Virus record (IMG/VR): IMGVR_UViG_3300047462_000030
Direction: 5' to 3' (one strand)
DNA: 64,000 nucleotides
Origin: an uncultured virus (IMG/VR IMGVR_UViG_3300047462_000030)
Lineage: Duplodnaviria; Heunggongvirae; Uroviricota; Caudoviricetes
In this document: positions 1,421-64,000 of the stretch, in pieces
How positions within the stretch are numbered: the stretch's first letter is position 1
How the letters are laid out: the number at the start of each line of letters is the position of its first letter
Position numbers and translations under genes: made by a program
The notes under the pieces: model-generated
Database searches by the model: none
Seen by the model: only the letters and a program-made list of their open reading frames with translations
What the model was told of the DNA's origin: nothing

Positions 1421-1447
1421 GTTAACCCTCCTTCCTAATAAGATACG

Positions 1448-1478
1448 GGCCCTAGGTTCTCTAGGGCCTTTATTTTTG
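1448..1478 (+). terminator. Rho-independent terminator after the capsid gene
   Basis: GGCCCTAG-GTTCT-CTAGGGCC 8-bp stem followed by TTTATTTTT. Confidence 0.85.
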
Positions 1479-1523
1479 TGTAAAATATAATAATTACATA
1501 TACTTACAATATAGTATAGATTG

Positions 1524-1542
1524 AATTAACAACTATACATGT
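1524..1542 (+). promoter_or_regulatory. Putative phage late promoter, copy 1 (AATTAACAACTATACATGT)
   Basis: Motif repeated at 12416 and 21982, each time at a gene boundary; here immediately after the capsid terminator. Confidence 0.65.
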
Positions 1543-1562
1543 GAGTAAGCCAAGGAGTTTTA

Positions 1563-2054
1563 ATGTCCATCCCTCTTAATATTCAAGGGACAATAATCAA
1601 TTTCCCTACCTCAGCCCAGAGTCCTGACTGGTCTGAACCCATTGTACAGTTTGCTCAAGCCGTAGCTCAAGCCCTTTCAACTGCAACTGGCCCCTATGAC
1701 GTTTCCCCTCAAATCTATACAATGATTTCTAATGTTAATACAAACGTACCGCTTCCTAGCTTAGCATTCCCTACGAGTGCTGTTAGAGGTGCTATTATAC
1801 AATACACAGTATATCGTAATACAACCGGTATTGGAGCCACTTCTGGTGCTCAAATAGGTGAATTACAAATAGTTTATAATCCCAATGGCCCAACTGGTAA
1901 TAAATGGGAAATATCTAACGAACACACAGGTATTGCCAATGTAAGCTTTTCTGTTACTGACCAAGGTCAAGTGACGTTTAGCTCTACATTTATCGCTGGC
2001 GCCAATTATACGGGCTTTATAGGCTATACTGCTAAAGCTTTACAGCAAGGTTAA
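1563..2054 (+). CDS. Virion structural protein (hypothetical)
   Basis: 163 aa beta-rich ORF with AAGGAG RBS, in the structural operon. Confidence 0.6.
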   Translation: MSIPLNIQGTIINFPTSAQSPDWSEPIVQFAQAVAQALSTATGPYDVSPQIYTMISNVNTNVPLPSLAFPTSAVRGAIIQYTVYRNTTGIGATSGAQIGELQIVYNPNGPTGNKWEISNEHTGIANVSFSVTDQGQVTFSSTFIAGANYTGFIGYTAKALQQG

Positions 2055-2057
2055 TAG

Positions 2058-4082
2058 ATGCTTAATATTCGACGTTTTGAAACAGGATTACAGATCGTAC
2101 CAAATGCCGTTGGTAATACTGCTCCCACCATTGAAGGCGAAATGGCAGTATGGAACACAGCAGATGGTGGTGATGGTAATATCTGGTATAATAATGGTAC
2201 TACAGTATATCCTATTACAGCAGCTATTGACGGTTTAACCGGTGATGTAAGTGCAACTGGTCCTGGTATTGTACATGCCACAGTTAATTTTGTTGGCGGT
2301 GTGAGTGCAGCAGCCATTGCAGCTTCCGTTGGTGCTACTGGTTCTGGAACTAGCCTAGATACCCCAAATACGCTCGTTTTAAGAGATAATACAGGTAGTT
2401 TTGCTGCTACAAACATCAATTTAACTGGTAGTTTAACCGGTGCAGTCATTGGTAATGCGTCTACAGCAACTCTTGCAGGTAATGTAACTGGTCTTGTATC
2501 TCCATTTAATGGTGGTACAGGCATTTCTAATGCCAATTCATCTACAATTACTTTAGCTAATCCATTTCCAATCACTTTAACATATCCAGCAGCTACAAAT
2601 GTAACACTTCCTGTAACTGGAACTTTAGCAACTTTAGCTGGTGTAGAAACATTTTCTAATAAAACATTCTCAACTGCTCAAACCTGGAATGAAGTTACAA
2701 CTCCAGGAACAAATCCTCCTGCTGGTTCAGTTGATATATATGCTAAATCAGACAATAATATTTATGTATTGAACAGTGCAGGTCTAGAATCACCTATTAA
2801 TGGTGGAGCTTCTCCTGTTGGCTCAATAACAATGTTTAGTGGTACTGTAGTAAATAGCTACACAGGAACATTTAGCACAAGTTCTGTAACAATTACTGCA
2901 AATTCCGCTAATAGTGGTACAATTACTTTAACTGGTGATGGTACAAGCTCTTTAAATACACTTATTTCTAATTTTAATACAGCAAATCCTTATAATACAA
3001 TTACTTTAACATCTGGTGATGGTACACAAGTTCCTACTTCAGGAGCTATGGCTACTTTAACTGGTTCTAAACTTCCTCCAGGATGGTTAGTTTGTGATGG
3101 TAGTGCTCAAAGTAAAATTACATATGCAGCTTTATATTCTGTAATTTCAGCCAATTATGGTGTTGGTCTTCCCGCTACTCAATCAGTAGCAACTTTAATG
3201 ACCACTCCTGACGTATCAACTGCAGCTTTTGCAAATATTGGTACAAATACTATAACTGCTGATAATCTTGGATTAATTGGTAATTCAATTGTTCTTACAT
3301 TTGATGGAACAAGTACAATTGACGCAGTAATTGGTGTTTGGAATACTGCTAATCCTTCAAATCAAGTAACTCAAGTCGGTAATGGATCTAATGTATATCC
3401 AGCTCAAAGTTTACAATTATCAAATGGTGCTTCTACTGTTGACGGTAAGTATTTTAAAATTTACGATGATACTGGGTTAGTAGTTCCTTGGGTTAAAATT
3501 GCAAGTACTACAACTCAACCTACCGTAGCAGGTGCAACAAGATATATTCAAATTAACGGAATCGTAGTTAATGCTACTTCAACACAAGTAGCTACAGCAA
3601 TTGCTGCTTCTCTTTCTGCAGATTCACAATTTACTCCAACGACTTCAACTGGTAATACAGTTACAATAATTAATACAAGTTATATTTCACATCCTGCTGG
3701 TAATGATGGTAATTCTCCATTTGCATATGCTCAAACAAATACTGGTGGATTTTCTACATTTAACCTTCCAGACTTTCGTGGTATGTTTCCACGAGGTACT
3801 GACCCAACTGGTATAAATGATCCAGATTACACATATCGTACATCTGCAAATAGTGGTAATACTGGTGGTAAAGTGGGTTCTATTCAAGCGGATGGTATGT
3901 CAGATCACACACATAGTATTACATTTAGAGCTGGTGCAGGAGCAACAACTCCAGAAGCTCCAGGCGGCGGTGGTACATATAATTATAATTCCAATGGAAT
4001 GAGTTCTGTTTCTGGTATTACAAATATAACCACTGAATCTAGACCTAAAAACGTATACGTTAACTTTATTATAAAATTCTAA
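2058..4082 (+). CDS. Tail fibre protein with interrupted tail-collar domain
   Basis: Collar motifs [10 protein letters not shown] / [18 protein letters not shown] / [14 protein letters not shown] and C-terminal [18 protein letters not shown]-rich fibre repeats. Confidence 0.8.
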
Positions 4083-32303: not shown

Positions 32304-32593
32304 TGTATATTCCAATCATCTCCAGTTGGAGTTTCTTTAGAAGCGGCTGCATCACCATTGGCTACGTCTGTATTAGCTTGCTGCTCTGCTTGATCGGCTT
32401 GAGTGGCCAACGCAGCATCTGCTTTGTTGGCACTCTCTAAACCTTTTTTAGAAGATCCAATAATTAAATTAATCAGAATACTTCTATATTTAATAACACC
32501 TAAAATAATGGTAGTTAATGGAACAACTGAGTAAAAGAAAAACTTGTTAGATTGATATAATTGCTCTAACCAAGCTTTAATTTTAGCGTCCAT
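32300..32593 (-). CDS. Membrane protein with TM helix and helical tail (i-spanin-like?)
   Basis: FFFYSVVPLTTIILGVI followed by an A/Q-rich helix. Confidence 0.4.
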   Translation of the reverse strand: MDAKIKAWLEQLYQSNKFFFYSVVPLTTIILGVIKYRSILINLIIGSSKKGLESANKADAALATQADQAEQQANTDVANGDAAASKETPTGDDWNIQ

Positions 32594-33470
32594 TTACCAC
32601 AACTCCAACATCTTGACCATACAACATATTGTAAGCTTCAGTGGAAATCCAATAGAGTCTGCCATTGGCTTGACCAATAAAAGGAAGCTTTGTATTTACA
32701 TACTTCATAACACCTGGATTAACAAAAAGTTTTTCAGCGGCATTGCCACGAACAAACACAATATTGTCTGCATAATGGGTTGCAATAGCATTCTTAGCTG
32801 ATAACCACATTTCAACACCAGAATGAGATTTGTACTCTGCATATGACATGCCAGCACGAGTGGCTGCATTAAGTTCAAGATCTCCAATATATTCTTTTAA
32901 AGAACCAAGACGAGAATACATTTTATCAACTTCACCTTCAACACCACCAGTGGCTGGGTGAAACATAATAAAAGATCTATCAATCATAAGACGTTGAGTA
33001 CCATACGAATGGATCATTGCTGCCATTGATGCACATATCTCAACACACACTGTATTGACTGGACCCCTAGCGGCTTGCATTGCCGAGATAATCGCTGCAC
33101 CATCGAGCACAGAGCCACCAGGAGAGTTAATAAGGATAGTAATAGGACTAGGGTCCTTACCAAGTTCCAAAATTTGTTTAGCAGCGACAGGAGCACTATT
33201 TTCATCAATTACACCATAGATGTATACTTCGCGGTTGTTACTAAGATCTAATTCTTTAAGAGTTTTCTTTGCTGAACCTGATTTATCATATACAGGAGCA
33301 AGTGTTGCATTGGTAGTAACACTACTAGTTCCAAGACTACCTGTTGCAGTTGTAGCGGTAATATTGCCTCCATTGCCAGTATCATAGGTTTTAGTATTTC
33401 CTTTTGGAAAACCTACAGTTGTAGCGATTGCGAGAATAATTACTCCGCCAGCGAATAAAAGTTTAATCAT
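32583..33470 (-). CDS. clpP: ClpP-family (S14) serine protease with N-terminal signal/TM segment
   Basis: YIYGVID, ILINSPGGSV, CASMAA (catalytic Ser), FIMFHP (catalytic His), MWLSAKNAI; N-terminus MIKLLFAGGVIILAIATTVGF. Confidence 0.85.
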   Translation of the reverse strand: MIKLLFAGGVIILAIATTVGFPKGNTKTYDTGNGGNITATTATGSLGTSSVTTNATLAPVYDKSGSAKKTLKELDLSNNREVYIYGVIDENSAPVAAKQILELGKDPSPITILINSPGGSVLDGAAIISAMQAARGPVNTVCVEICASMAAMIHSYGTQRLMIDRSFIMFHPATGGVEGEVDKMYSRLGSLKEYIGDLELNAATRAGMSYAEYKSHSGVEMWLSAKNAIATHYADNIVFVRGNAAEKLFVNPGVMKYVNTKLPFIGQANGRLYWISTEAYNMLYGQDVGVVVNGR

Positions 33471-33705
33471 TAGACGTTGCTCCTTTTGCAAGATTGTCGA
33501 CATGTTGTTTAAGACTATATACACCACCTAATGCCGTTATGGCAGAGGCGAAATCCATTCCAGTAAATATTGCCAATTTAAACTGACCTATTGCTATTCC
33601 ACTAAAAATAAGCTTAAGTAGACATACAATAAACCCAACAACAAATGCAGTAAGTGTTACAGATTTATCTTTTGTTTTTGGATCAGTCATCCACATATAA
33701 AACAT
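33463..33705 (-). CDS. Two-TM membrane protein (holin-like)
   Basis: SVTLTAFVVGFIVCLLKLIFSGI and FASAITALGGVYSL hydrophobic helices; start uncertain. Confidence 0.5.
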   Translation of the reverse strand: MFYMWMTDPKTKDKSVTLTAFVVGFIVCLLKLIFSGIAIGQFKLAIFTGMDFASAITALGGVYSLKQHVDNLAKGATSND

Positions 33706-35381: not shown

Positions 35382-35768
35382 TTAAGATTCATTTTGTGCT
35401 CGTTTCTCGGCTTCCTTATTTTTCACTATAGCACGTTCTTCAGAAAAAGTCAAGCTATTTCCGTATCTAACTGATAATTTTTTATAATTCTTTTCCATTA
35501 CTTCTTCCAATGAGAAGCCCAAAGCATTGCAAGCAACGCCCATATACCATAGTAGATCGCCAATTTCATCAATAAAATCTGACGTTTGGATCTCTTTGCC
35601 ATACATAATTTTCTTTTTAAACAAATCTTGTACTTCACCAGCTTCTGTACCAATGCCTATTACAGCATGCATCAAACGAAGATTAGTGTCTGTTAGTCTT
35701 TCTCTTAGCTTTTCGAATTGTTTGTTTTCCAATTGATCTACGCTTTTTAGAAACTCTTTTGGGTTCAT
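35382..35768 (-). CDS. MazG-like nucleotide pyrophosphohydrolase
   Basis: HAVIGIGTEAGEVQDLFKK..DEIGDLLWY..NYKKLSVRY. Confidence 0.85.
   Translation of the reverse strand: MNPKEFLKSVDQLENKQFEKLRERLTDTNLRLMHAVIGIGTEAGEVQDLFKKKIMYGKEIQTSDFIDEIGDLLWYMGVACNALGFSLEEVMEKNYKKLSVRYGNSLTFSEERAIVKNKEAEKRAQNES
35425..35453 (-). promoter_or_regulatory. Sigma70-type promoter
   Basis: TTGACT-N17-TATAGT with extended -10 TG, inside the 3' end of the MazG-like gene. Confidence 0.55.
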
Positions 35769-36087
35769 TCTTATAGCCTTTCCATAAATCATCTTCACCA
35801 GAGTTATTTATTTCATACTCAAGTAATGCCATAATATTCCATGCAACATGAGCTAAATGAGACAAATGACTTTCTTTGTCAACTCTATTACCTCTATTAT
35901 AATCTAATAGATGTCTTTCTGCTGCGTCCATTAAACGGGACCATTTCATTCCACCACGCCAATTATGATCTGAATATTTGGCAGCGCCCATTGTAGCAAC
36001 TTTAGCGATTTCTAATATAGCATCAGAACTAAGAAGGGAAACCCTTGGCTTCCCCGAATCATATTTTTTACCTTTTAATTTTGCCAT
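35683..36087 (-). CDS. dATP/dGTP diphosphohydrolase (DUF5664-type)
   Basis: KYDSGKPRVSLL..GAAKYSDHNWRGG..AAERHL..DKESHLSHLAHVAWN. Confidence 0.85.
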   Translation of the reverse strand: MAKLKGKKYDSGKPRVSLLSSDAILEIAKVATMGAAKYSDHNWRGGMKWSRLMDAAERHLLDYNRGNRVDKESHLSHLAHVAWNIMALLEYEINNSGEDDLWKGYKNEPKRVSKKRRSIGKQTIRKAKRKTNRH

Positions 36088-36198
36088 TTTTACCTCATAA
36101 AAAAACAGTGTGGAGTAGGACGTCATCCCACCATAGCAACTGGCTGATAAACCAAGATCCGTTTGCTACCCTGCGACAGGCCACACTGAATCGGACGT

Positions 36199-46225: not shown

Positions 46226-46930
46226 CTATCTGTAACACATTTCTTGAACTAGAGATTTTGTATAAGCTGCGGTAGCTTGTGAAGTACCGCTCATGTATCC
46301 ATACTTGTTGCCTGGTAGTGTTGAGAATATCTTTTCTCCAACTGCCCATTTCATCTCAGGTATTCCGTAATCAGAAAAGCTAAGTTTATAATCATCTTGA
46401 CCTAATGCACCAACTGCTGTCTCATTAGGAAGTCTATAGCAAGCAGGGAAATATCCAAAGCAAGGAGATCCTAAATTCTTATCGTGATTACCAGCAGCTA
46501 CAACAATCTTGATACCAGCATCACTAACTTTCTTAAGAATTGCATACTCTTCATCTGAAGATTGATCTCCACCACCGGAAAAGTTAACAATATCAATATG
46601 TTCTTTCAGCGCACGATTAAAACAATATGTAAGTTTATCAAATTGTCCTGCACCTTTAAAGAAAGCTTTGCAAGAAATGATATGTAAATATGGACACTTA
46701 GCTCCCGCTATTATACCTGCGATATGAGTACCATGACCATAATCATCATCGTAATCTTCATACGGTCCATAAGGTTCTACATAAGGCATAAGATCTATAT
46801 GGTTACGATCAACACCTGTATCAACCACCATAACTCTTATATCTTTAGCTTGGCTATCACAAGAATGCCCCACTAAGAATAATATCATACCAAACATAAT
46901 TAAATAAATAGCTTTGTTACTGAGGCACAT
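46226..46930 (-). CDS. Subtilisin-family (S8) serine peptidase with signal/TM segment
   Basis: VVDTG (Asp), HGTHIAG (His), AAGN (oxyanion Asn), SGTSQA (Ser); hydrophobic N-terminus. Confidence 0.9.
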   Translation of the reverse strand: MCLSNKAIYLIMFGMILFLVGHSCDSQAKDIRVMVVDTGVDRNHIDLMPYVEPYGPYEDYDDDYGHGTHIAGIIAGAKCPYLHIISCKAFFKGAGQFDKLTYCFNRALKEHIDIVNFSGGGDQSSDEEYAILKKVSDAGIKIVVAAGNHDKNLGSPCFGYFPACYRLPNETAVGALGQDDYKLSFSDYGIPEMKWAVGEKIFSTLPGNKYGYMSGTSQATAAYTKSLVQEMCYR

Positions 46931-47429
46931 TGTCACCTTCCAAACATATCTTAGCACGAGTTACATCAAATGTCAAGTTTAATTGTCCACGTAATACTTC
47001 TACTTGTACAACACTACCAGGCTCACCGCGAATATTACCAGCATTTAATATGACATCGCCTGATTGTATACCCGCGTTTGCGGCGGGATATCCAGCATAA
47101 GCTTCATATATTTCTCCTCTACCATTGGCATATAATACTCCAATGCCTCCAAAAAATAACTTACAAGTTGATTTCTTTTTAGATTCTTTTTTCTTACCTG
47201 GACCTTTATCTTTATGTGCGGGTTGTTCTACAAGTGTAACTTCTGTAGGCTTTTCAACTATATGCTTACCATCTAAATCATCTGGAGGTAATCCACTTTC
47301 TTTCTTTGTTGGATCTCCAGTTTGCGGAGCGCCACCTTTACCACCATGATTTACAACGCTAATAAAACATAGAGCGTGTAAAATACCACTAACCACAAAT
47401 GCTTGCTTAATAGACACCTTGGTCCTCAT
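46917..47429 (-). CDS. Membrane-anchored PDZ-domain protein
   Basis: TonB-like TM SGILHAL; FGGIG carboxylate-binding loop, PAANAGIQSGDVI, IRGEPGSVVQVEVLRG as in CtpA-type PDZ domains. Confidence 0.75.
   Translation of the reverse strand: MRTKVSIKQAFVVSGILHALCFISVVNHGGKGGAPQTGDPTKKESGLPPDDLDGKHIVEKPTEVTLVEQPAHKDKGPGKKKESKKKSTCKLFFGGIGVLYANGRGEIYEAYAGYPAANAGIQSGDVILNAGNIRGEPGSVVQVEVLRGQLNLTFDVTRAKICLEGDNVPQ
46948..46976 (-). promoter_or_regulatory. Sigma70-type promoter upstream of the S8 peptidase
   Basis: TTGACA-N17-TAAGAT with extended -10 TG. Confidence 0.6.
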
Positions 47430-53406: not shown

Positions 53407-54261
53407 TTACCATCCAAACATTGTATCATAGATTGCTTTGATATCCTTAACTGTTATATCCTCACCAATGATCTTATCCTTAATCATATGGTTACGAAGT
53501 ACAACTACAGTTGGTTTAGTATCAAACTTACGATTAAGATAATACCTAACATGATCTGCTAGTTGCATACGAGCTTTGAACTTCTTAATCTTTAATTGTT
53601 TCTTAGAAGGTTTATCATACAACTTAAAGATTGAATACTTAAACCTATCACCATCTCGTTCTGAGATATAAACATAATCATTTTCTACGTGAGATACAGT
53701 ATACATAACTCCAAATGATAACCTAGAATTTTCTCTAAAGCATTTAACCTTATCACCGACCTTGAAAGGATTATTATTAGACTTAGCATTACGTTTCTTA
53801 AACATTAGATTAGAATTAGGTACAGATATAATCCAACCAGCTTTAAGTTGTATATGAGATACATGCTCATACGCTTTAACTACTCTATAAGTAGCACCAA
53901 CATAATCATTAGGTCTGTATGATAGTGGGTCTTGTCCTTCAGTAGTTGATATGTTTGTTGCACCTACAGAACTATTGAATACAACATCATCTAATACCAT
54001 GAAGGGACCATGAGTAATACTCCTAAACATTGTTGTAGGTACTTCAGAGTAATTACCATTATCATTCATTACAGATAACATATCGTTAGGTTCTACTTCT
54101 TCAATCTTATAAATACATCCAACAGTAAATTCTTCTTCGTGATTAACATTAGAGATACACTCAATATAAGTTCTACGCATAAAGTTAGAACCTTCTAATA
54201 CATTAGGTATCTCAAGATCTTGGATATCATCTACAGATATTAAGATAGGTAAGTTAGACAT
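53407..54261 (-). CDS. Protein with several SH3/KOW-like modules
   Basis: FTVGCIYKIEEV, FMVLDDVVF and FKVGDKVKC modules; AGGAG RBS. Confidence 0.55.
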   Translation of the reverse strand: MSNLPILISVDDIQDLEIPNVLEGSNFMRRTYIECISNVNHEEEFTVGCIYKIEEVEPNDMLSVMNDNGNYSEVPTTMFRSITHGPFMVLDDVVFNSSVGATNISTTEGQDPLSYRPNDYVGATYRVVKAYEHVSHIQLKAGWIISVPNSNLMFKKRNAKSNNNPFKVGDKVKCFRENSRLSFGVMYTVSHVENDYVYISERDGDRFKYSIFKLYDKPSKKQLKIKKFKARMQLADHVRYYLNRKFDTKPTVVVLRNHMIKDKIIGEDITVKDIKAIYDTMFGW

Positions 54262-54778: not shown

Positions 54779-54943
54779 CTAGTCATTTACAATCACCTCT
54801 AATTCGTTTGCACGATAACCTTGAATACATTGTAACTCAATTAAACGTACAACGATAACTTCGCCATCTATCTTTTCAATGAACCCTTCTAGTCCACGAT
54901 AGACTCCGAAGTCGATAATCTTAACCTTGTCTCCTACGCTCAA
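54779..54943 (-). CDS. KOW-motif protein (54 aa; not in ORF track)
   Basis: TTG start; SVGDKVKIIDFGVYRGLEGFIEKID. Confidence 0.55.
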   Translation of the reverse strand: MSVGDKVKIIDFGVYRGLEGFIEKIDGEVIVVRLIELQCIQGYRANELEVIVND

Positions 54944-55113
54944 GAGATAACCTCTAGCTCACTCATATAGAAGTTTTTAGGATCTGCATTCTCGTCTGGT
55001 TGAACTGTAACAACTTTGTCTTTACTATCTAGTATATTTGTAATAGCTTTAACGTGCCCAATAGCCCCGCTGTACTCTCCTGATATAACTTTAACCTTAT
55101 CACCCTTCTTCAT
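54940..55113 (-). CDS. KOW-motif protein (57 aa; not in ORF track)
   Basis: MKKGDKVKVISGEYSGAIGHV, a close match to the uL24/NusG KOW pattern. Confidence 0.65.
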   Translation of the reverse strand: MKKGDKVKVISGEYSGAIGHVKAITNILDSKDKVVTVQPDENADPKNFYMSELEVIS

Positions 55114-55698: not shown

Positions 55699-56169
55699 TT
55701 AGTAACCCTCATCTTCCTCTTGCATGGTATCATCAAGTATCAATGGAGCAGGTTCATCATCTTGGTCATAAGATCTAAGTGTAGTGTTAACTCTAATAGC
55801 ATCTAAAGATATACCAGAACGTAGTAGGCTACCAGATGTAGGTCCACCATCATAGTAAACTCTACCTGCATCTTTAAAATTACCCTTAATCTTATCTAAA
55901 AAATTTACTTCATCCTTAAGTGTAACAGGTTTAACTTCAGCAACTTTAGATGAACCTTTCTTTCTTAACGCTCTAAATTGTTGTGTCGTAAAGTTAATTA
56001 AACCGTGTGGAGTTTCAAGCTTGAATGCGTGCTCTCCAGCAACTTCTCCCATGTCTGTTACAATAGGAAAGATCTTACCTTTAAATAAGTCTATATCACC
56101 ATTTGAAAATGATTGCCAAGCAGTTGGATATACGTCTAATATCTTAACTCGTTGTCCGACTTTAAACAT
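55699..56169 (-). CDS. SH3-like protein with the shared 'WLDRV-NF' motif (internal, divergent)
   Basis: MFKVGQRVKI...LKDEVNFLDKIKGNFKD followed by an acidic tail. Confidence 0.65.
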   Translation of the reverse strand: MFKVGQRVKILDVYPTAWQSFSNGDIDLFKGKIFPIVTDMGEVAGEHAFKLETPHGLINFTTQQFRALRKKGSSKVAEVKPVTLKDEVNFLDKIKGNFKDAGRVYYDGGPTSGSLLRSGISLDAIRVNTTLRSYDQDDEPAPLILDDTMQEEDEGY

Positions 56170-56172
56170 ATT

Positions 56173-56925
56173 TTATACCCTCGCTAACAAAGGCAACACA
56201 GCTTGTTTATACTTCTCAAGAGTAGTACCTTCTAAAGCTGGTGCAGTATTAACTTCTAATACAATAGCTTTATCTTTCTTAGTCCAGATGATATCTACGG
56301 CACCAAAGTCTAACCCAAGAGCAGCAACAGCTTTGATTGCTTGTGTCTTAACTTCATCAATTTCTTCAATATTATCTCGACAAAATACCCAACCATTGTT
56401 ATAACTCCTAATGTATTTATTAAACTCTGTGTCAGCTAAACCTTCACGTTTCTTTTTCTGAACGTAATCAATTACTTGACCACCAAATACATGGACTCTA
56501 AACTCAAACTTCTTACGATAATATCGTACATAAACCTTAGCTGGAATAAGATCCTCAACAGTCTTACACACTTTAATACCTTGACCACTATGCCCATCAA
56601 GTTTTGTTCTAGCTAACACAATATACTCATCTGCAATCCATGACTTAGCAACTTCTATATCTTGGGTATAGTCTGGAATACTAACCTCGGCAGCTTTAAG
56701 CTTATCAAAGGCTAACAATTTATTAGCCGCTAGCTTAACATGCTCTGGTTTATTAAGCCAAGTACACACAGCACGAGGCTCAACCTTTGTACTGCCCCAG
56801 TTCATCACTAGCTCGCGACCACGAGGAGTTTTAGCTGGGTCTACAACGCGAAAATATCTAAAAGGAAACGCTCGTCTTAGCGCTGTACATGATTTACTAA
56901 AACGCTTGTAAGGTCTTATTTTCAT
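56173..56925 (-). CDS. ATP-grasp ligase (RimK/phiEco32-like)
   Basis: AANKLLAF, GHSGQGI, EFRVHVF, IRSYNNGW, ALGLDFGAVDI, VLEVNTAPAL. Confidence 0.9.
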   Translation of the reverse strand: MKIRPYKRFSKSCTALRRAFPFRYFRVVDPAKTPRGRELVMNWGSTKVEPRAVCTWLNKPEHVKLAANKLLAFDKLKAAEVSIPDYTQDIEVAKSWIADEYIVLARTKLDGHSGQGIKVCKTVEDLIPAKVYVRYYRKKFEFRVHVFGGQVIDYVQKKKREGLADTEFNKYIRSYNNGWVFCRDNIEEIDEVKTQAIKAVAALGLDFGAVDIIWTKKDKAIVLEVNTAPALEGTTLEKYKQAVLPLLARV

Positions 56926-57389
56926 TAGTCATTCTCCTTTAAATAATTAATAGCTTTAGTTAATAATTCAATTGAATCTTTTAATTTACCTATACCACTG
57001 TTACATTCTAAACAAAGTAATCCTCTAACTTTACCTGTTGTATGGTTATGATCTATAGCTAAACGTCTAAGCATCTTTATTCTTTGATCAAAAGTTTTTT
57101 CTGGTTGATTGCAAATTGCACATAAATTATTTTGTTTATTAACCATATTTATAAATTGTTCATGGCTTAATCCATAACGTCTAGACATTTTATAATTTTT
57201 TGTAACTTCTACATGATCGAATCTATATTGTTTATTTTTTTCTCTAATTAATTCTCGATTCTTTTCTTTATAAGCAGATCTAACTTTAGAAATTCTTTCT
57301 TTATTTTTTGCATAGTAAGAAAGTTTATATTCTTTATAGTGTTCCTTGTTTTCTGCTCTATGTTTTTTATTATATTCTGAATCTGACAT
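56925..57389 (-). CDS. Endonuclease VII-like homing endonuclease
   Basis: K/E/R-rich helical N-terminus; CAIC..LAIDHNHTTGKVRGLLCLECNSGIG. Confidence 0.9.
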   Translation of the reverse strand: MSDSEYNKKHRAENKEHYKEYKLSYYAKNKERISKVRSAYKEKNRELIREKNKQYRFDHVEVTKNYKMSRRYGLSHEQFINMVNKQNNLCAICNQPEKTFDQRIKMLRRLAIDHNHTTGKVRGLLCLECNSGIGKLKDSIELLTKAINYLKEND

Positions 57390-57462
57390 TATTTTTTACC
57401 AACAGTATGTTTACATATACCTATTGGCAATCCACAATAGTAACATTGTCCTACAACTTTTT

Positions 57463-57723
57463 TCATGATTTAAAATTCTCCTTTACTCTATCAAGCCATT
57501 CAATTTCTGTCCTAGGCGGGTCTGAAATAAATTTCATATACGGTTCACATAAACAATTTGTTTGCCAAAAACTTATACTACCAGTCCTAGTATTCATTAT
57601 CTTAGTTACAATACTACGATGATCTTGTACAACGACCATAATTATATCATCTTTTTTAAATAAAAAACCATTTGTCTCGTAATGTTGTAAAGCTTTAAAC
57701 TTATGTCCTACTTTATATTGCAT
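57463..57723 (-). CDS. SH3-like protein with C-terminal EIEWLDRVKENFK motif
   Basis: MQYKVGHKFKA...TEIEWLDRVKENFKS; GAGG RBS. Confidence 0.7.
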   Translation of the reverse strand: MQYKVGHKFKALQHYETNGFLFKKDDIIMVVVQDHRSIVTKIMNTRTGSISFWQTNCLCEPYMKFISDPPRTEIEWLDRVKENFKS

Positions 57724-57724
57724 A

Positions 57725-57964
57725 TCAGTTAACCTCAATTCTAGAATGATTATAAAATTCATCTAATAAAGCATCAACTGCTTCATCCTCTATGTCTGAA
57801 AAGAATTCTTTATTGTATTCTATATCCATAAGCTCATCATCTTTATCTAAGAACTTAAAGCTTAGATCTAATACAGTTGTACCTATAATAGACTTACAAT
57901 ACGCTACTACATTAACCATTGTATCTGTTGCTGGAAGAAATGTTGTAAATTGAACTTGATACAT
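57725..57964 (-). CDS. Acidic hypothetical protein
   Basis: 79 aa, AAGGAG RBS. Confidence 0.6.
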   Translation of the reverse strand: MYQVQFTTFLPATDTMVNVVAYCKSIIGTTVLDLSFKFLDKDDELMDIEYNKEFFSDIEDEAVDALLDEFYNHSRIEVN

Positions 57965-57967
57965 ATA

Positions 57968-58267
57968 CTACTCCTTGAAGTTCTGTTGAACTCTATTTAA
58001 CCAATCTATTTCGTTCATTGGCATGTTAATGATTTTTTTCTTTGATAGTTTAAAACAAGTATGACCCCAATTGGCTTGTTTACCTAATCTTATATTGTTG
58101 TTGTAACCACTAGATAGCTTAGGACAATGTATTCCTATAGAATAGTCTGTATTATATAGTTTCTGTATTGATTTAACTTCATACAATTCACCCTTCTTAG
58201 GACCACCACTACCAACTGATATAGATTCAATACATTCTACAATATCACCTATTTTAAATTGTATCAT
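57968..58267 (-). CDS. SH3-like protein with C-terminal EIDWLNRVQQNFK motif
   Basis: MIQFKIGDIVEC...NEIDWLNRVQQNFKE. Confidence 0.7.
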   Translation of the reverse strand: MIQFKIGDIVECIESISVGSGGPKKGELYEVKSIQKLYNTDYSIGIHCPKLSSGYNNNIRLGKQANWGHTCFKLSKKKIINMPMNEIDWLNRVQQNFKE

Positions 58268-58268
58268 A

Positions 58269-58559
58269 TCACATCCTAAAGTTATCTCTAACTCTATCAA
58301 GCCATTCAATTTCTGTCAATATTCTATCTTCATCTAAAGATTTTAAACAATAATCTGGTATATACCATCCCTGTATTTCTTGAATAAAAACTTTTTTAAA
58401 ACCAACTTCTGATTGAATATCGTAAACAGTTAATACATCACCCAATTTTAATTCTCTAGGGTTATAATAACTTCCATTTGTGTAATTAACATAGTAGGGT
58501 TTTATGTTATGGGTTTCCGCCCAACCAACTAACTTAACTTTTTTACCAATTTTTATCAT
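58269..58559 (-). CDS. SH3-like protein with C-terminal EIEWLDRVRDNFR motif
   Basis: MIKIGKKVKL...TEIEWLDRVRDNFRM; GGAGG RBS. Confidence 0.7.
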   Translation of the reverse strand: MIKIGKKVKLVGWAETHNIKPYYVNYTNGSYYNPRELKLGDVLTVYDIQSEVGFKKVFIQEIQGWYIPDYCLKSLDEDRILTEIEWLDRVRDNFRM

Positions 58560-58634
58560 ATTAAAAAACCCTCCCAAAACTTTACACACACGCGCCTTGG
58601 AGACTATTTTTTGTCCTCAGCCGTGCATTAAGTC

Positions 58635-59840
58635 TTATCTATTAGATGCGCTACGTTTATGCCAAACACCAACAGAGTCTTGTTCAAAGTCTTGCTCCCA
58701 CACTTGACGCTTATCTTTTGTTACGCCATCACCAATAGACTTGACAGCATCATTAGGAATAGGTGTTGTAACTTTCTTACCATCCTTATATTCTATAACC
58801 TCATAACCATCATAGTTAGGTATCATATCACCTTGTACTAACATGCGCTCAAGCTCATCTTCTTTTTGACGCTCAGTGAAGTTAGCCATATTCTTGTGGT
58901 CAGCTCCACTTGCACCGAACACATTAGTAAACTTATCTAGTACACTACCATGCTTATCTAATACAGTTAATGAACCGCCACCAACATTGCCGCGTCTATT
59001 GTTCTTACCTTTGTAAGCGCCGTCAAAGTCTACAACCTCAATCACTTCCCCAGTCATAGCATTGATGCGTACAGCTTTACAATTAGGAATCTCATATTCC
59101 TCAGTTATAGTGAAACTAACATCACGACAAGCACTTGTGATAGGTCCGTATTGCTCACTGTGTCCAGTCGTACCGAATACAACTTGACCTAATTCTTTGA
59201 TATAGTAGCCACGAAGTTTAGCTACGTTATCTTTAAACACATCAATAATCTTTGTGCCATCAGCCATCTTGCTAATGATACCGCACGCATAATAACCATC
59301 AAGATTTGCTACAACCTTTTTAAGATTGCTAAGATTGTTAGCTACATTAAACTTAATATATTCATTAAGAATACATTCACTATCACAAGTAGACACTTTG
59401 TTTGTTAACTCTTTTGTATTATGAATAACACCATTATGAATTAACGCTGTGTCTCCGATAACAAAGGGATGCAAGTTCTCCATAGTCTTAGCGCATGTTG
59501 CTTTACGAGCATGAAGGATTGCACACTTAAGTTTATCATCAACCTTAACATCTCCAAACGAATTGTAACCTCCAGCTTTAGGTAACTTAGTAGCTTTGAT
59601 AAAGCCTTTGAACTTACTCTCTACTACATGCTCAATAGGAGCTTCCTTATTTCTATTAAGAAATGCTTCCTTTGGGTTATACCATCGTTCACCAAACATA
59701 TTACCTTCACTATCTAACGCGGCATATCCAAAGCCATCATCATCACTGAAGGTCATCTCTTTACCTAGGGCTTTAATCAAGCGCCATGCCTGACTTGAAG
59801 TCTCATCGGTGATACCAGGAATTACTGCAATCTTACACAT
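58635..59840 (-). CDS. Class II (Ntn) glutamine amidotransferase
   Basis: Likely start MC at 59840 (AAGGAG RBS) places Cys at position 2; DGFG, HARKAT, ENLHPF, HNGVI, CDSE. Confidence 0.9.
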   Translation of the reverse strand: MCKIAVIPGITDETSSQAWRLIKALGKEMTFSDDDGFGYAALDSEGNMFGERWYNPKEAFLNRNKEAPIEHVVESKFKGFIKATKLPKAGGYNSFGDVKVDDKLKCAILHARKATCAKTMENLHPFVIGDTALIHNGVIHNTKELTNKVSTCDSECILNEYIKFNVANNLSNLKKVVANLDGYYACGIISKMADGTKIIDVFKDNVAKLRGYYIKELGQVVFGTTGHSEQYGPITSACRDVSFTITEEYEIPNCKAVRINAMTGEVIEVVDFDGAYKGKNNRRGNVGGGSLTVLDKHGSVLDKFTNVFGASGADHKNMANFTERQKEDELERMLVQGDMIPNYDGYEVIEYKDGKKVTTPIPNDAVKSIGDGVTKDKRQVWEQDFEQDSVGVWHKRSASNR

Positions 59841-59889
59841 GTTTTTATTCTCCTTGTTTTGTCTATTCAATAGCTTTCGAATTCTAAAC

Positions 59890-61251
59890 TCAAGCTGCTC
59901 CTCGTTCTTCAATCTCACGTTTATCCTCACCTACAAACATAGCCATACGACTTGCAATATACATACCAAGCTCTGCATCAACATCATACTGTTTGATAAA
60001 GCCCCTGAGTGTACTAGCTGCACGCTTAATAGCTTCCTTCTTGTTTGTGATTAACAACAATAACTTAATCCAATTGTTAATCTTACTTGCTTGCACTGTA
60101 CCTGAGTGTATGCGTACTTCAATTGTATTGTGCTTAGCATGCGCCGTAGCATTGATACCAAAGTATCGCATATCACGACCACCACCATTGATTGCCTCAT
60201 TGAATACTTTTGTCTCTTGACGTTTACAATAGCTACCTGATTGTCTTGAGAAAGGATTCATTGCAAACAAAATATTCTGTGCAGATACAAGGTTATGGAA
60301 TGCAACAACGTGATCTCTGTTACGCATATCTAAGTGAACGTGCATACCACAAGACTTGTTAACCTTAGCATTAGCTGCTAACAATACTTTACTAACTTGC
60401 TCAATAACTTCATAGATATCTTTTTCTTTAGCTAAGATAGTAACCTCATGTGGATACATACCATCTTCAGTACGAATAGAACCGTCTGTCTTTAAACAAA
60501 CATTCTTACCTAAGCCATGCTCAAACAACTTAAATGATAAATCTTCTTGATTGAGATCACAAAAGAATTCAATCTCACATCCAATGTAGTTATCTTTTGT
60601 TTGAGGCTTTTTCTCTTGAAAGACAATCTGTTTGTCTTTACTCTTTAAGAATTTCATAAAAGCTCCCATTTCTTTATTCATATAATCTCGTGGAGATTCG
60701 CCACGTTTAAATACAGGTTGCATTCTATTATGCATTACTCCGCCACAAACTTCATAGGCTATGTTAATACCAAGCTTACTAAGATGTTTACTTCTACGAT
60801 GTACGCGCATCTTTCTAGCATCACGTCTAGCTTGTTGAAACTTTTCACGTATATTCTTTTTAAAATGTTTAAGCTGTTCAAACTTTGTAGCTTTGTCTGA
60901 TAGTTGTATCAATCCTTTGTGAAGCTTTAAGTGACGGACATTGTTAACAATAGACTTATCAAGTGGGGCAAGAACTTCAAAGTCATAGTTAACTTTACCA
61001 ATCATTTTCTTCCATGTACGATTTTTAATATCGTAATCAATCTTGTAAACAGACCTAACTTCTTTCTGTTGATAACGAAAGTCTTTAATCCATTTCTGCA
61101 TCTCAGCACAAGCATACTCAACATTCTTAATAGACTTAACAACTTCTTTGTTCTTGTTGTACTCAGCTAACAAATGCCTGACAGTTTTATACCGAATGAA
61201 ATCGGCTGGCATGGCTTTCTTAGCTAGATTCTGTACGGTTATTTTATACAT
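59890..61251 (-). CDS. Putative amidoligase (COOH-NH2 ligase, glutamine-synthetase-like fold)
   Basis: IGCEIEF, KTDGSI, HEV, NKSCGMHVHLD, RYFGIN, TIEVRIHSGT. Confidence 0.85.
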   Translation of the reverse strand: MYKITVQNLAKKAMPADFIRYKTVRHLLAEYNKNKEVVKSIKNVEYACAEMQKWIKDFRYQQKEVRSVYKIDYDIKNRTWKKMIGKVNYDFEVLAPLDKSIVNNVRHLKLHKGLIQLSDKATKFEQLKHFKKNIREKFQQARRDARKMRVHRRSKHLSKLGINIAYEVCGGVMHNRMQPVFKRGESPRDYMNKEMGAFMKFLKSKDKQIVFQEKKPQTKDNYIGCEIEFFCDLNQEDLSFKLFEHGLGKNVCLKTDGSIRTEDGMYPHEVTILAKEKDIYEVIEQVSKVLLAANAKVNKSCGMHVHLDMRNRDHVVAFHNLVSAQNILFAMNPFSRQSGSYCKRQETKVFNEAINGGGRDMRYFGINATAHAKHNTIEVRIHSGTVQASKINNWIKLLLLITNKKEAIKRAASTLRGFIKQYDVDAELGMYIASRMAMFVGEDKREIEERGAA

Positions 61252-61486
61252 ATCTATCTCCTTCCAATATCGTTTTTAATTTGATAATACATATCCAAAA
61301 TTTCTGCATAGTTATGCTTAACATGAAACCAGATTAGTTTCTTTTTGTGATCTTGGAAGTTAGTCTTGATGTGTGTAATGTTACTCCACTTATCATCTGG
61401 CTTAATACGAAGGATACAATGGTGCGGCAATTGCAAAGATGTATCCCATATCGATTTAAGCTTTAAACGTTTCATAACACCCTCTA

Positions 61487-61515
61487 ATTATAATTGATGC
61501 GCACATTTCTGTCAA
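61487..61515 (-). promoter_or_regulatory. Consensus sigma70 promoter upstream of the amidoligase cluster
   Basis: TTGACA-N17-TATAAT. Confidence 0.8.
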
Positions 61516-61629
61516 GCAATTTACTAAACAGATCTAAAGCTAATGATAAATCAGTAACAGGAATACTAGGATAATCTCCATTCCTATCACTGTATGTAAC
61601 AACATACAAGTGATCGTGCTGTGATAGCT

Positions 61630-62154
61630 TTACCTTATATCCTTTTTTGTTATCGGCGATTTCCTTGATGACCATAACGCTTCCTCCATAGTTTTAATAC
61701 AATCATCTAAGGATAATTGTACCATAGGTTCAAAATGTATTGGCTCATATTGTGAATTTACCCATTGCATTTGATTTAACATTTGTAATGAATATGGTGT
61801 ATTATTTATTATATATGACTGTTGTAATCCTTGATTTGTTAATATTGGAGTATTATAACCTAATTGTGCTGATGAACCACTAGTTCCTTGTATGCCATAG
61901 TTAATATAATTAACCTGACCCAACTGTTGTTGCATTAAATCTTGTGCACTAATATTCGCCGCTTGTTGAATCATTCCACTATGTAATGCTAGGTGTTGTT
62001 GAAAGCCATCATGGTTAGGCATAGGTGTTAGAGTTCTCCTAAGTTCTACAGTTTCTCTATCATGCTTCCATATATCGTAGAAGGAATAGAATAAGAATAA
62101 CAATAAGATTAGTATTGATACTCCTAATATAATTATAAGTATATGATGTATCAT
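61630..62154 (-). CDS. TM-anchored Gln-rich protein
   Basis: N-terminal TM helix, Q-rich low-complexity body. Confidence 0.55.
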   Translation of the reverse strand: MIHHILIIILGVSILILLLFLFYSFYDIWKHDRETVELRRTLTPMPNHDGFQQHLALHSGMIQQAANISAQDLMQQQLGQVNYINYGIQGTSGSSAQLGYNTPILTNQGLQQSYIINNTPYSLQMLNQMQWVNSQYEPIHFEPMVQLSLDDCIKTMEEALWSSRKSPITKKDIR

Positions 62155-62997
62155 TAGAAGCCTCTAAACTTTTTAATAAACCTCATGTTAGCTTCACGAC
62201 GTTTTAAGAATAAGCATTCAACATTGTCTGGTTTATATTCAACTTCAAACTCTGTATCTTTAAGTAAGAACATTGCATCCATTTGTTCAGTCTCAAAGTC
62301 AACACCATACAAGATACCATCCTCTATAGCATAAAGGGTAAACCTTTGACCTGATACTGTAATAACATCACCCGGTTTAAGATTACATATTTCCATACTT
62401 GCTATCCTTTGTTATGATGCCACCATTGGCAGACCTGATATACATTGTAAATGTCTTGTAACCCATATCAGCAAATGCCTCTTGCATTTGACTCATGATA
62501 TAAGATGCTAGATCAAAGCTCGTAGTCTTAATGATAACGTGTGGAGCTTGCACATGATTCTTTGTCTCAAGCAATAACTCCCACTCACCACCAACAATCT
62601 TAGATAACATATCATCCTTACCTTTCATTGGTTCATCAAGACCTAATTGATCTACAGTAAATAACATCTTATCTTTATACCATAGATATGCAATACACAA
62701 AGCACTTACTACAATCATCCACATAATATATTCCTTAACCTTCTGGATAAATATCATATTGAGTATCATCGTTAAAGTAATTGGTGACAACTCTACTGTC
62801 TATAAATTCATTACCGAATCTTTCACGAAGTAACTTAAGACCTACATTAGATACAAAATAATCTATTCCATTTAGATATAGTATATCACCATCTGAAGGT
62901 TCACACTCGTGCATAGTGATAGGACATAAACCTAATTGAGCTTCAAGTGTTTGCATCTTGTATGCTGTCATATCCATTTCTTTATTACGTCTAGGTA

Positions 62998-63459
62998 CTA
63001 CCATCTGCTATCTCCATTGTTGGTGTAAGCCATCTCAGCTTCATCCAGTAATCTTTCACGTTCATCTAATAAACAATCAGGACATCTATGCTCATCATAA
63101 TGAGTAGAACAATCTTGACATTCAAATCTATCTGATCCATAAACATCTGGTATCATATAGTTACCATACTTATCTATACGCATACCAACATACAATGGTA
63201 TGTATCCACACCACCACTTACGTTTAATAAACTTAACTTTAAGTGGAGTATGTTTACGATAAAAGTTAACGCTACTAGCTGACTTAGAATAGAATGTATA
63301 TTCATTTAATGAATTGATAGTTAATATAGTATTACGACCAAGAAAAATATAAGCAGCATCATTCATTATAATTATACGATAAGAATAATACTTAGCCCCA
63401 TCCCATCTATTAGTAGATTTTTTAAATAGGTCATTAGCTTTCTTGAATGTTATCGCCAT
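62998..63459 (-). CDS. Hypothetical protein with C-terminal Zn finger
   Basis: CQDC..CPDC. Confidence 0.55.
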   Translation of the reverse strand: MAITFKKANDLFKKSTNRWDGAKYYSYRIIIMNDAAYIFLGRNTILTINSLNEYTFYSKSASSVNFYRKHTPLKVKFIKRKWWCGYIPLYVGMRIDKYGNYMIPDVYGSDRFECQDCSTHYDEHRCPDCLLDERERLLDEAEMAYTNNGDSRW

Positions 63460-63616
63460 ATTCTAACTCCATATCTTGTTCAATGTAGATAGAAGGTTTA
63501 TGTCCAAACTCTATGAATGCTTCACTAGCTGCATACTCAGCTTCTTCTCTTGATGAGATACAGTTAGCATAAGTAATTGCTTTGCCACTAGAATGTTGTA
63601 CCGTTATTTTATACAT
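63434..63616 (-). CDS. Small protein sharing the N-terminus MYKITVQ with the amidoligase
   Basis: AAGGAG RBS; identical first 7 aa. Confidence 0.6.
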   Translation of the reverse strand: MYKITVQHSSGKAITYANCISSREEAEYAASEAFIEFGHKPSIYIEQDMELEYGDNIQES

Positions 63617-63625
63617 AGTATCTCC

Positions 63626-63985
63626 TTAATGTTTAAAGTTTTCTTGTACTCTATCAAGCCATTCAATATCATCTTTAGGACTTGAGTATTCAACTACTTC
63701 AAAGTTGTGTTTAAAAAGATATACCGTTTGCATATCACCTTCATTGTCTAATACTTCTACAGCATATACATTTTCTTCTGTGCGATTATCTTCTTCTGAC
63801 TCATCATTGTAATTATAATAGTCATCATCTTTATAATACTCATGGTCAATGTCGCCTGTCAACACACCAATCTTACCAAGATAATTTGAAACTGCATAGT
63901 CATAATCATCTGGATCTTCATTAATGTTAACTTTATATTTTAAGTTTTTGATATGAACCTTGCTACCTTGTCTTAACTTTTTCAT
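63626..63985 (-). CDS. SH3-like acidic protein with C-terminal DIEWLDRVQENFK motif
   Basis: MKKLRQGSKVHI...DDIEWLDRVQENFKH. Confidence 0.7.
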   Translation of the reverse strand: MKKLRQGSKVHIKNLKYKVNINEDPDDYDYAVSNYLGKIGVLTGDIDHEYYKDDDYYNYNDESEEDNRTEENVYAVEVLDNEGDMQTVYLFKHNFEVVEYSSPKDDIEWLDRVQENFKH

Positions 63986-64000
63986 TTGACTTTATCCTCA

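Follow-up and report, generated by a model that had tools for sequence, protein, structure and literature searches.

A Multi-Copy Family of Small SH3-like Phage Proteins with a Conserved Terminal Helix, Encoded among the Genes of a phiEco32-Type Ligase Cassette

Introduction

Phages of the phiEco32/LUZ24 type are said to carry an amidoligase cassette that was reportedly described in 2009 by Iyer, Abhiman, Burroughs and Aravind. Here we analyze a cassette of this type in an uncultured tailed phage (IMG/VR record IMGVR_UViG_3300047462_000030) and, in particular, a set of small SH3-like proteins that are encoded among the ligase genes and share one short amphipathic helix, almost always at the end of the protein. 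The stretch of DNA under study, called the window below, is 64 kb out of a contig of 86,378 bp and covers most of the phage genome. This locus shares with the phiEco32/LUZ24-type cassette (PF14395, PF12224, PF13522) the enzyme set, the order of the enzymes, and the position next to replication genes, but it differs by the interleaved motif-bearing SH3-like genes and by an interleaved gene for an acidic protein of 79 amino acids (aa). The cassette occurs in hundreds of phages, and the clade described here adds multi-copy small folded proteins that other cassettes lack. An excerpt of PMC10580990 gives cell-wall modification as a suggestion attributed to Iyer et al. 2009 and treats the function of the cassette as unexplored. 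No experimental study of the cassette turned up in literature searches.

Several described proteins provide points of comparison for the terminal helix. SspB is a small β-barrel adaptor with a flexible linker and a C-terminal tail that binds ClpX. The capsid-targeting sequence of T4 internal proteins and the cargo-loading peptides of encapsulins are terminal targeting peptides. RimK acts on S6, LysX acts on LysW, and graspetide ligases recognize leader helices. The proteins of the window resemble SspB in architecture: a variable linker joins an SH3/Sm-like body to a terminal peptide that is short and strongly conserved. They differ from SspB in showing neither a relation to it by sequence nor any evidence of proteolysis, and in that the conserved element is an acidic amphipathic helix found in a multi-copy family.

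Results and Discussion

An earlier note on this DNA, made from the sequence alone, had reported five open reading frames (ORFs) with a common motif, at the extreme C-terminus in four of them. We searched the window in all six frames with a regular expression and confirmed this count. The window contains exactly five in-frame copies, all on the minus strand, and not one of 300 base shuffles of the window contains even a single match. Four copies stop one residue short of the stop codon. The fifth is internal in a 156-aa ORF and is followed by a 53-residue acidic tail ending EEDEGY. The peptides and N-terminal strands quoted in the note agree with the translations. Its description of the five proteins as otherwise dissimilar has to be revised: they are diverged paralogs in one undescribed family of small phage SH3-like proteins. 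The five members in the window are as follows.

63626-63985, minus strand: family member 1, 119 aa; SH3-like barrel with an acidic insert; C-terminal motif DDIEWLDRVQENFKH at 63632-63670
58269-58559, minus strand: family member 2, 96 aa; C-terminal motif TEIEWLDRVRDNFRM at 58275-58313
57968-58267, minus strand: family member 3, 99 aa; C-terminal motif NEIDWLNRVQQNFKE at 57974-58012
57463-57723, minus strand: family member 4, 86 aa (the one modelled); C-terminal motif TEIEWLDRVKENFKS at 57469-57507
55699-56169, minus strand: family member 5, 156 aa; barrel, longer linker, internal motif DEVNFLDKIKGNFKD at 55873-55911, acidic tail

The starts at 57723, 58267, and 58559 are internal ATGs in longer ORFs, each with a ribosome-binding site of the GAGG/AGGA type ahead of it, and are plausible.

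Members of the family measure about 75-120 aa, with a few longer ones. They consist of an SH3-like barrel, a proline-rich linker (typically PPK), and a 14-residue amphipathic, acidic helix with the consensus [TN][ED][ILV][ED]-W-L-D-[RA]-[VI]-Q-x-N-F-K, which almost always ends the protein. An alignment of 21 members (the 5 window proteins, 14 from related contigs, and 2 database proteins) shows an invariant glycine (G6) in the first strand (FKxGDKV), a nearly invariant turn glycine (G48), and a hydrophobic last strand. Over the 210 pairs, the 14 motif columns show 61% pairwise identity (minimum 36%), as compared to 20% (maximum 42%) for the barrel. The L, N, and F of the motif are invariant in all 21 members, and residues of the type found on helix surfaces (E, D, R, Q, N, and K) are conserved while the barrels remain only 20% identical. 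The length of the linker that joins the helix to the last strand varies between about 4 and about 20 residues. Four members have an internal helix with a long tail after it; the helix is therefore not an obligatory part of the barrel.

The 86-aa member was modelled with AlphaFold2. The model contains seven short strands and a helix at residues 73-85, and forms a small barrel of the 5-7-stranded kind that is superposable on solved SH3, Tudor, and KOW domains. The mean predicted local distance difference test score (pLDDT) was 80.8 with the 21-row alignment and 87.5 with a 96-row alignment. With the latter, the barrel reached pLDDT values of 86-95, whereas the helix remained at 73 despite being the best conserved part. 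Every match listed by Foldseek is an SH3 domain, none of them at E ≤ 0.001, and the structural neighbors include KOW, Tudor, and CarD domains among others. The SH3-like fold that the earlier note had read from the N-terminal strands is thus supported; the assignment is sound but points to no function. The helix has a hydrophobic moment of 1.48, as compared to 0.78 ± 0.39 in shuffles, 5% of which equal or exceed this value. The invariant asparagine lies on the edge of the hydrophobic face. The net charge of the helix is -2, and the barrels are mildly basic, with a median isoelectric point of 8.8 and 60 of 97 above 8.

The motif is conserved as a peptide and not as DNA. Nine copies (5 from the window and 4 from a relative) differ by synonymous codons: Ile is written ATT, ATA, or ATC, Leu CTT or TTA, Arg AGA or CGT, Val GTA or GTT, and Asn AAC or AAT. 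Since the same residues are written with different codons, selection acts on the peptide. These codon changes, together with the finding that promoter-like sites are not enriched (54 between 55000 and 64000, as compared to 45.6 ± 6.4 in shuffles), led us to reject a DNA-level element such as a promoter, recombination, or regulatory site. The sequence TTGACA-17-TAGAGT can be read at one copy (58319-58291) and is missing from the others. Two copies in the window have 26 nucleotides (nt) identical, an indication that paralogs have undergone gene conversion or recently exchanged sequence.

An exhaustive HMMER profile search of 1.84 billion representative proteins returned 833 proteins at E ≤ 0.001, and 91 at E ≤ 1e-10. 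A word-index search found only 7 homologues, a large undercount by comparison. Among the best 150 of the 833 proteins, 103 are no longer than 200 aa; 93 of these match the motif expression, and most of the other ten are near variants. The motif comes in two flavors, ...EWLDR[VI]QxNFKE and ...D[WFY]LDA[FIV]QxNFKEGV. In 95 of 97 small motif-bearing proteins, NF is followed by 1-5 residues, and these vary (KE, KEGV, KD, KYG, and others). The 49 long matches are tandem SH3-like repeat proteins that align to the barrel only, and none of them contains the motif. We looked up ten relatives, all of them singletons or pairs; they derive from ENA and Logan assemblies, in which their contigs measure 934 to 85,872 bp. 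Single members scanned against Pfam and PHROGs matched no family. In conclusion, this is a sizeable family with hundreds of library matches that is unmatched in Pfam or PHROGs.

No family member was found in the cultured-phage loci scanned, nor in a pattern scan of 185,579 reference genomes. The latter produced 46 stretches, 22 of them in frame for the motif core. We judged all of these matches to be chance and accordingly rejected the idea that the motif mimics the end of a bacterial protein. One is the C-terminus of a MarR-like protein. Nine others (loci L104-L106, L108, L122, L124, L125, L130, and L131) belong to one Clostridial family of about 360-aa TIM-barrel glycosidase-like proteins, in which NTEWLNRVQDNF is internal and lies beside a WDLWNEPG segment; this look-alike is an example of how a pattern scan can mislead. 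Four scans of IMG/VR for more genomes returned just the single contig already known (L003). One further candidate relative (L146) was rejected at 14.9 bits, and two candidates from a metagenome scan (L054 and L008) were judged to be chance.

The relative L003 is a complete genome of 85,261 bp with terminal repeats. It encodes five family members, the same number as the window, so that both long genomes are multi-copy, and it has the same synteny. Further members are encoded on five short metagenome contigs (L004, L011, L015, L025, and L056). The residues past NFK are alike within a contig: all three copies in L015 continue with GV, and three of the four copies in L025 with [NS]V. This likeness fits either one partner per genome or gene conversion.

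Role of the Terminal Helix

We infer that the helix serves as a flexibly tethered docking element through which all paralogs of a genome would bind one common partner in trans. We give this reading somewhat less than an even chance and place it first because the helix is so much better conserved than the barrels, because the linker varies in length, because internal copies are followed by tails, and because the confidence of the model is low at the helix. The diverging, fast-evolving, and mildly basic barrels might then supply different second contacts, and the paralogs would be modular adaptors produced early in infection. The partner could be a protein of the clade, with the neighboring ligases and the 79-aa protein as candidates, or a hub of the host. 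If the helix does not engage the ligases, a new hub targeted by modular phage adaptors is possible.

Several observations weigh against tethered docking. No partner of the helix was found. Gene conversion alone can explain both the within-contig likeness of the tails and the 26-nt identical stretch. Among the best 150 relatives, the motif is confined to one barrel type and occurs with no other domain, and a plain domain end would look alike. Finally, both barrel and helix are covered by a match of the family profile to eL21, a ribosomal protein of eukaryotes (E 4e-4, 24 bits), and this sequence match hints that the barrel and the following helix may be one structural unit.

The last two points lead to a different explanation, namely that the helix is a plain conserved last element of the domain, which acts in cis or contacts nucleic acid or the ribosome as in eL21, and that the proteins are SH3/KOW-like binding proteins that carry no tag. 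The 96-member profile aligns to eL21 over positions 4-84 of 90, helix included, with E values from 4e-4 to 7e-3, and 11 distinct eL21 sequences score at E ≤ 0.01. In the helix, EFLERVKxN of eL21 aligns with EWLDRVQxN. The restriction of the motif to this one barrel type points the same way, as do the KOW, Tudor, and CarD domains among the structural neighbors and the CarD_TRCF_RID proteins encoded beside members in relatives; moreover, a basic barrel could pair with a helix of net charge -2. On the other hand, the linker varies four- to five-fold in length, four members have long tails past the helix, the deeper alignment raises the confidence of the barrel and leaves that of the helix unchanged, and surface-type residues of the helix are conserved across barrels of 20% identity. 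The eL21 match itself is weak, and no member scanned matches the Pfam family Ribosomal_L21e. The protein eL21 is archaeal and eukaryotic, and bacteria are not known to have it. All told, we regard this explanation as unlikely, although likelier than the other alternatives to docking.

The amphipathic character of the helix, with the invariant asparagine at the edge of the hydrophobic face, and its presence on several copies per genome would also suit a role in homo- or hetero-oligomerization of the paralogs. Helices could form a bundle, or the acidic helix of one copy could lie on the oppositely charged barrel of another, with the result of one mixed complex per genome. The likeness of the tails within a contig agrees with this idea. 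A length of 14 residues would be short for a stable bundle, and we consider oligomerization improbable.

A third possibility is that the helix loads the small proteins into capsids, from which they would be ejected into the next host. Like the T4 and encapsulin tags, the helix is a short terminal peptide on several proteins of one genome that is better conserved than the remainder of these proteins, and virion loading would account for such a peptide. The phage also encodes very large virion proteins (2119, 1674, and 1371 aa). In contrast to the known tags, which sit on unrelated folds, the helix sits on one fold, and the family genes belong to the replication and early strand, opposite the structural block at 1-30500. 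Virion loading therefore appears very improbable, and tethered docking remains the reading that we prefer.

The Ligase Cassette

The earlier note had named an ATP-grasp ligase, a class II glutamine amidotransferase (GATase), and an amidoligase, and had described them as co-occurring in phiEco32-like phages. Pfam and PHROGs bear out all three calls, and the set is of the known phiEco32 type: the window encodes an Amidoligase_2 protein, a class II GATase with an N-terminal cysteine, and a RimK-like ATP-grasp ligase. The enzymes and the other genes interleaved with the family members are listed below.

59890-61251, minus strand: amidoligase, 453 aa; Amidoligase_2 core in the C-terminal half
58635-59840, minus strand: class II (N-terminal nucleophile, Ntn) GATase; the ORF extends to 59930, and the likely start is the Met before Cys (MCKIAV)
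57725-57964, minus strand: conserved acidic 79-aa protein; among the motif genes in five of seven motif-bearing contigs
57389-57466, minus strand: Cys-rich micro-ORF, 25 codons (CYYC...C.HT); its start overlaps the stop of family member 4
56925-57389, minus strand: Endonuclease VII-type nuclease (Endonuclease_7, by Pfam and PHROGs), within the ligase/motif block
56173-56925, minus strand: RimK-like ATP-grasp ligase, 250 aa (Pfam and PHROGs)

The ATP-grasp ligase matches PF08443 (E 7.5e-7, 29.4 bits against a cut-off of 21) and phrog_2599 (E 1e-73). Its residues D211, E224, and N226 are invariant in 26 relatives, and homologues occur in 315 cultured-phage records. The GATase matches GATase_6 (E 2.4e-9, 37.7 bits against a cut-off of 27). 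Its start is likely at 59840, because the in-frame MCKIAV corresponds to the MCKICI start of the L003 orthologue and because Ntn amidotransferases need Cys1. The amidoligase matches Amidoligase_2 (PF12224, E 2.6e-12, 47.6 bits against a cut-off of 22) and phrog_2443 (E 1e-20) and is 50% identical to its L003 orthologue over the full length; its basic and helical N-terminal part of about 220 aa matched no family. The amidoligase and the GATase of the window are very diverged from other phage copies. The enzymes retain residues that are invariant among their relatives.

The phiEco32-like COOH-NH2 ligase type 2 (PF14395) is encoded in L003 (2569-3957, E 5.8e-12). It is not among the window ORFs scanned; the matching place would fall past the window end at 64000. 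A γ-glutamyl cyclotransferase (GGCT/AIG2) was looked for among 22 + 53 minus-strand ORFs of the window and gave no match at the thresholds applied. In five of seven cultured cassettes, the GATase gene is followed by a gene for a small protein of the type LDNPVVTR...GIKV, which is absent from the window, from L003, and from 32 other IMG/VR loci. The C-terminal tail of the GATase (58635-59000, and likewise in the orthologues of L003, L004, and L011) has two conserved segments past the catalytic domain, [FW]S[ED].QK[DE].[ED]L[ED]R.L and ..W[HR][KR]K... A faint likeness of the first segment to the motif (L-[ED]-R-hydrophobic) is probably due to chance.

Gene order around the cassette is conserved among the relatives. 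L003 has the order member ... PF14395 ligase ... amidoligase, member, GATase, member, acidic 76-aa protein, ATP-grasp, long member ... uracil-DNA glycosylase (UDG), member, where the 76-aa protein is the homologue of the 79-aa protein of the window. In L004 and L011, the GATase is followed by a CarD_TRCF_RID-like small protein and then by members around a homologue of the 79-aa protein. L056 contains ATP-grasp followed by a family member, L015 (1.1 kb) three members and a 79-aa homologue, and L025 (2.9 kb) four members in tandem. Hence a ligase gene stands beside members in five of the seven motif-bearing contigs (the window, L003, L004 and L011 with GATase, and L056 with ATP-grasp), and L015 and L025 are the short remainder. 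Since all seven contigs form one clade with a common gene order, this adjacency counts as a single observation.

Such an arrangement raises the question as to whether the helix is a recognition tag for the neighboring ligases, such that the ATP-grasp ligase or the amidoligase would bind it and modify the tagged proteins or use them as carriers. In every motif-bearing contig that is long enough, the motif genes are interleaved with the enzyme genes or follow them directly. The gene directly after ATP-grasp encodes a family member in three of three cases, with gaps of 2-9 nt; in the window it is the 156-aa member, which begins 3 nt past the ATP-grasp stop, and orthologues of this protein follow ATP-grasp in L003 and L056. 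Together with the conserved residues of the enzymes, these features would favor a ligase tag.

The distribution of the cassette argues in the opposite direction. A hidden Markov model (HMM) of the motif, which scores true members at 27-52 bits, was run on 7 cultured-phage and 33 IMG/VR cassette loci, the latter including the known relative. The motif was missing from all seven cultured-phage loci (best score 8.7 bits) and from all 32 other IMG/VR ATP-grasp loci (best score 7.7 bits). Therefore, the cassette works without the motif almost everywhere. Even within the clade, not all copies keep close to the enzymes. Member 1 of the window lies 2.4 kb upstream of the amidoligase with eight small ORFs between them, and one copy in L003 has the UDG gene as its neighbor, at a distance of about 3.6 kb downstream from ATP-grasp. 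The residues past NFK vary, and a terminal glutamate is not conserved. A complex prediction for the ATP-grasp ligase, the amidoligase, and the 79-aa protein with the 86-aa member gave scores of 0.00 and 0.00 (interaction prediction score from aligned errors, ipSAE), which counts neither way. The link to the ligases thus amounts to no more than clade-restricted synteny, and we consider a ligase tag unlikely.

These results bear on the proposal of the earlier note that the motif is a docking or recognition tag, comparable to the follower peptide of a peptide that is made by the ribosome and modified after translation (RiPP). The notion of docking gains from the strong conservation of the helix relative to the barrels, the variable linker, and the lower pLDDT, but no specific tie to the ligases emerged, and co-occurrence of motif and cassette, which the note had suggested to look for with a motif HMM, was not seen outside the clade in the loci examined. 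Likewise, the genes do flank and separate the enzymes as far as the interleaved copies are concerned, whereas the copy at 63626-63985 belongs to this arrangement only loosely. Among the best 150 relatives, the motif marks the conserved end of a single domain family, and the picture of a tag that moves between unrelated proteins does not hold. The analogy with RiPP followers finds no support: the proteins are folded domains of 75-156 aa with no recognizable core peptide and no repeated or conserved core segment besides the helix.

Comparison with RimK and LysX leads to a similar conclusion. As with RimK-S6 and LysX-LysW, a RimK-like ATP-grasp gene directly precedes the gene for a small protein with a conserved C-terminal region. 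In contrast to these systems and to the graspetides, the motif lacks a conserved terminal glutamate or acidic end, and there is no core peptide. The acidic C-terminal tail ending in glutamate that typifies such substrates is not a feature of the family: acidic tails occur only on the long members adjacent to ATP-grasp, where the last residue is Y or R in the two genomes examined.

In other lineages, too, small proteins follow ATP-grasp. At 19 of the 33 IMG/VR loci, the following gene encodes a small protein that is compact in its N-terminal part and carries a C-terminal tail that is either conserved or acidic. These comprise 11 Cys4 proteins with acidic tails, six proteins of the ...QLYRKQEFQFKGV type, plus L064 and L065; among the 19, one locus encodes SH3-like FKIGQRV proteins ending LLLEENV, and one is the known relative. 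The Cys4 proteins (L073, L081, L084-L086, L089, L075, L091, L093, L095, and L074) are 56-74 aa long with a long acidic tail that often ends in Glu. In architecture they are reminiscent of LysW, the carrier of LysX-type ATP-grasp ligases; a comparison with LysW by sequence gave no PDB match below E 0.05. Proteins of the QLYRKQEFQFKGV type (L071, L072, L078, L083, L090, and L092) measure about 108 aa, overlap the ATP-grasp stop, and have an invariant C-terminal QLYRK...F.F and an end in FKGV or FQGA. A relation between these ...QEFQFKGV proteins and the motif family could not be demonstrated (hhalign probability 24%).

Nevertheless, the pattern of ATP-grasp neighbors keeps a connection with the ligases alive at low odds. 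In its fullest form, the SH3-like motif proteins would be the natural substrates or carriers of the cassette in this clade, with one of the ligases docking on the helix and adding an amino acid or peptide to the tagged proteins, and the tailed followers of ATP-grasp (the Cys4, QEFQFKGV, and SH3 types) would play the same part elsewhere. We hold this extended version to be slightly less likely still than the ligase tag as such. If it were true, the helix would reveal the substrate of the cassette, and an enzyme set without known substrate since 2009 would gain a directly testable one.

Other Features of the Window and Its Relatives

The plus strand of the window from 1 to about 30,500 encodes virion proteins, and the minus strand encodes replication and early proteins. 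Megablast of the window against cultured phages found no near-identical DNA. The best identity of the family-B DNA polymerase is only 29.6%, to Salinibacter phages, and the major capsid protein gave no match in the PDB.

Several genes on the minus strand deserve mention. A protein with the N-terminal domain of a dATP/dGTP diphosphohydrolase (35382-36126, PF18909, E 5e-34) is encoded beside a MazG-like pyrophosphohydrolase (PF03819). Judging by these two genes, the phage would clear a canonical deoxynucleoside triphosphate, possibly since its own DNA has a replaced base. Far from the virion block, the replication strand also encodes a ClpP-family protease (PF00574, E 1e-23), a subtilase (S8, E 3e-24), and an adjoining PDZ-like protein (32583-33527 and 46226-47429). 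Additional small SH3/KOW-like proteins that lack the motif are encoded at 54779-54943 and 54940-55113 (KOW-type matches, E 1.8e-5), and a 284-aa protein at 53407-54261 is built with SH3-like modules (phrog_4927).

Within the ligase/motif block, the acidic 79-aa protein matched no family in Pfam or PHROGs. In the window, and apparently also in L004, the Endonuclease VII-type gene separates a family member from ATP-grasp, whereas L003 has no such gene at this place. The endonuclease gene is probably a mobile insertion. The micro-ORF at 57389-57466 also overlaps the start of the endonuclease gene. At the corresponding position, L011 has a Cys-rich ORF of 54 aa (1523-1687) with a similar CYYC...C.HT pattern, and judging from this pattern, the micro-ORF may encode a conserved zinc-knuckle micro-protein.

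The CarD_TRCF_RID-like proteins of L004 (1158-1403, minus strand) and L011 (765-1031, plus strand) are 81-88 aa long and match the RNA-polymerase-interacting domain of CarD/TRCF (PF02559, 33 bits against a cut-off of 23). Their genes lie between the GATase and the first family member, a place where the window has no such gene. These neighbors hint that the small barrel proteins of the clade might aim at the host RNA polymerase. Finally, L003 contains a second set of five small tandem ORFs (503-2116, plus strand; 67-115 aa) with another common C-terminus (..FTLD[IL]E / FSLDLESL) and an N-terminal L.PG.K.K strand in common. Families of paralogs with a terminal motif may, by the look of these ORFs, be a habit of this clade.

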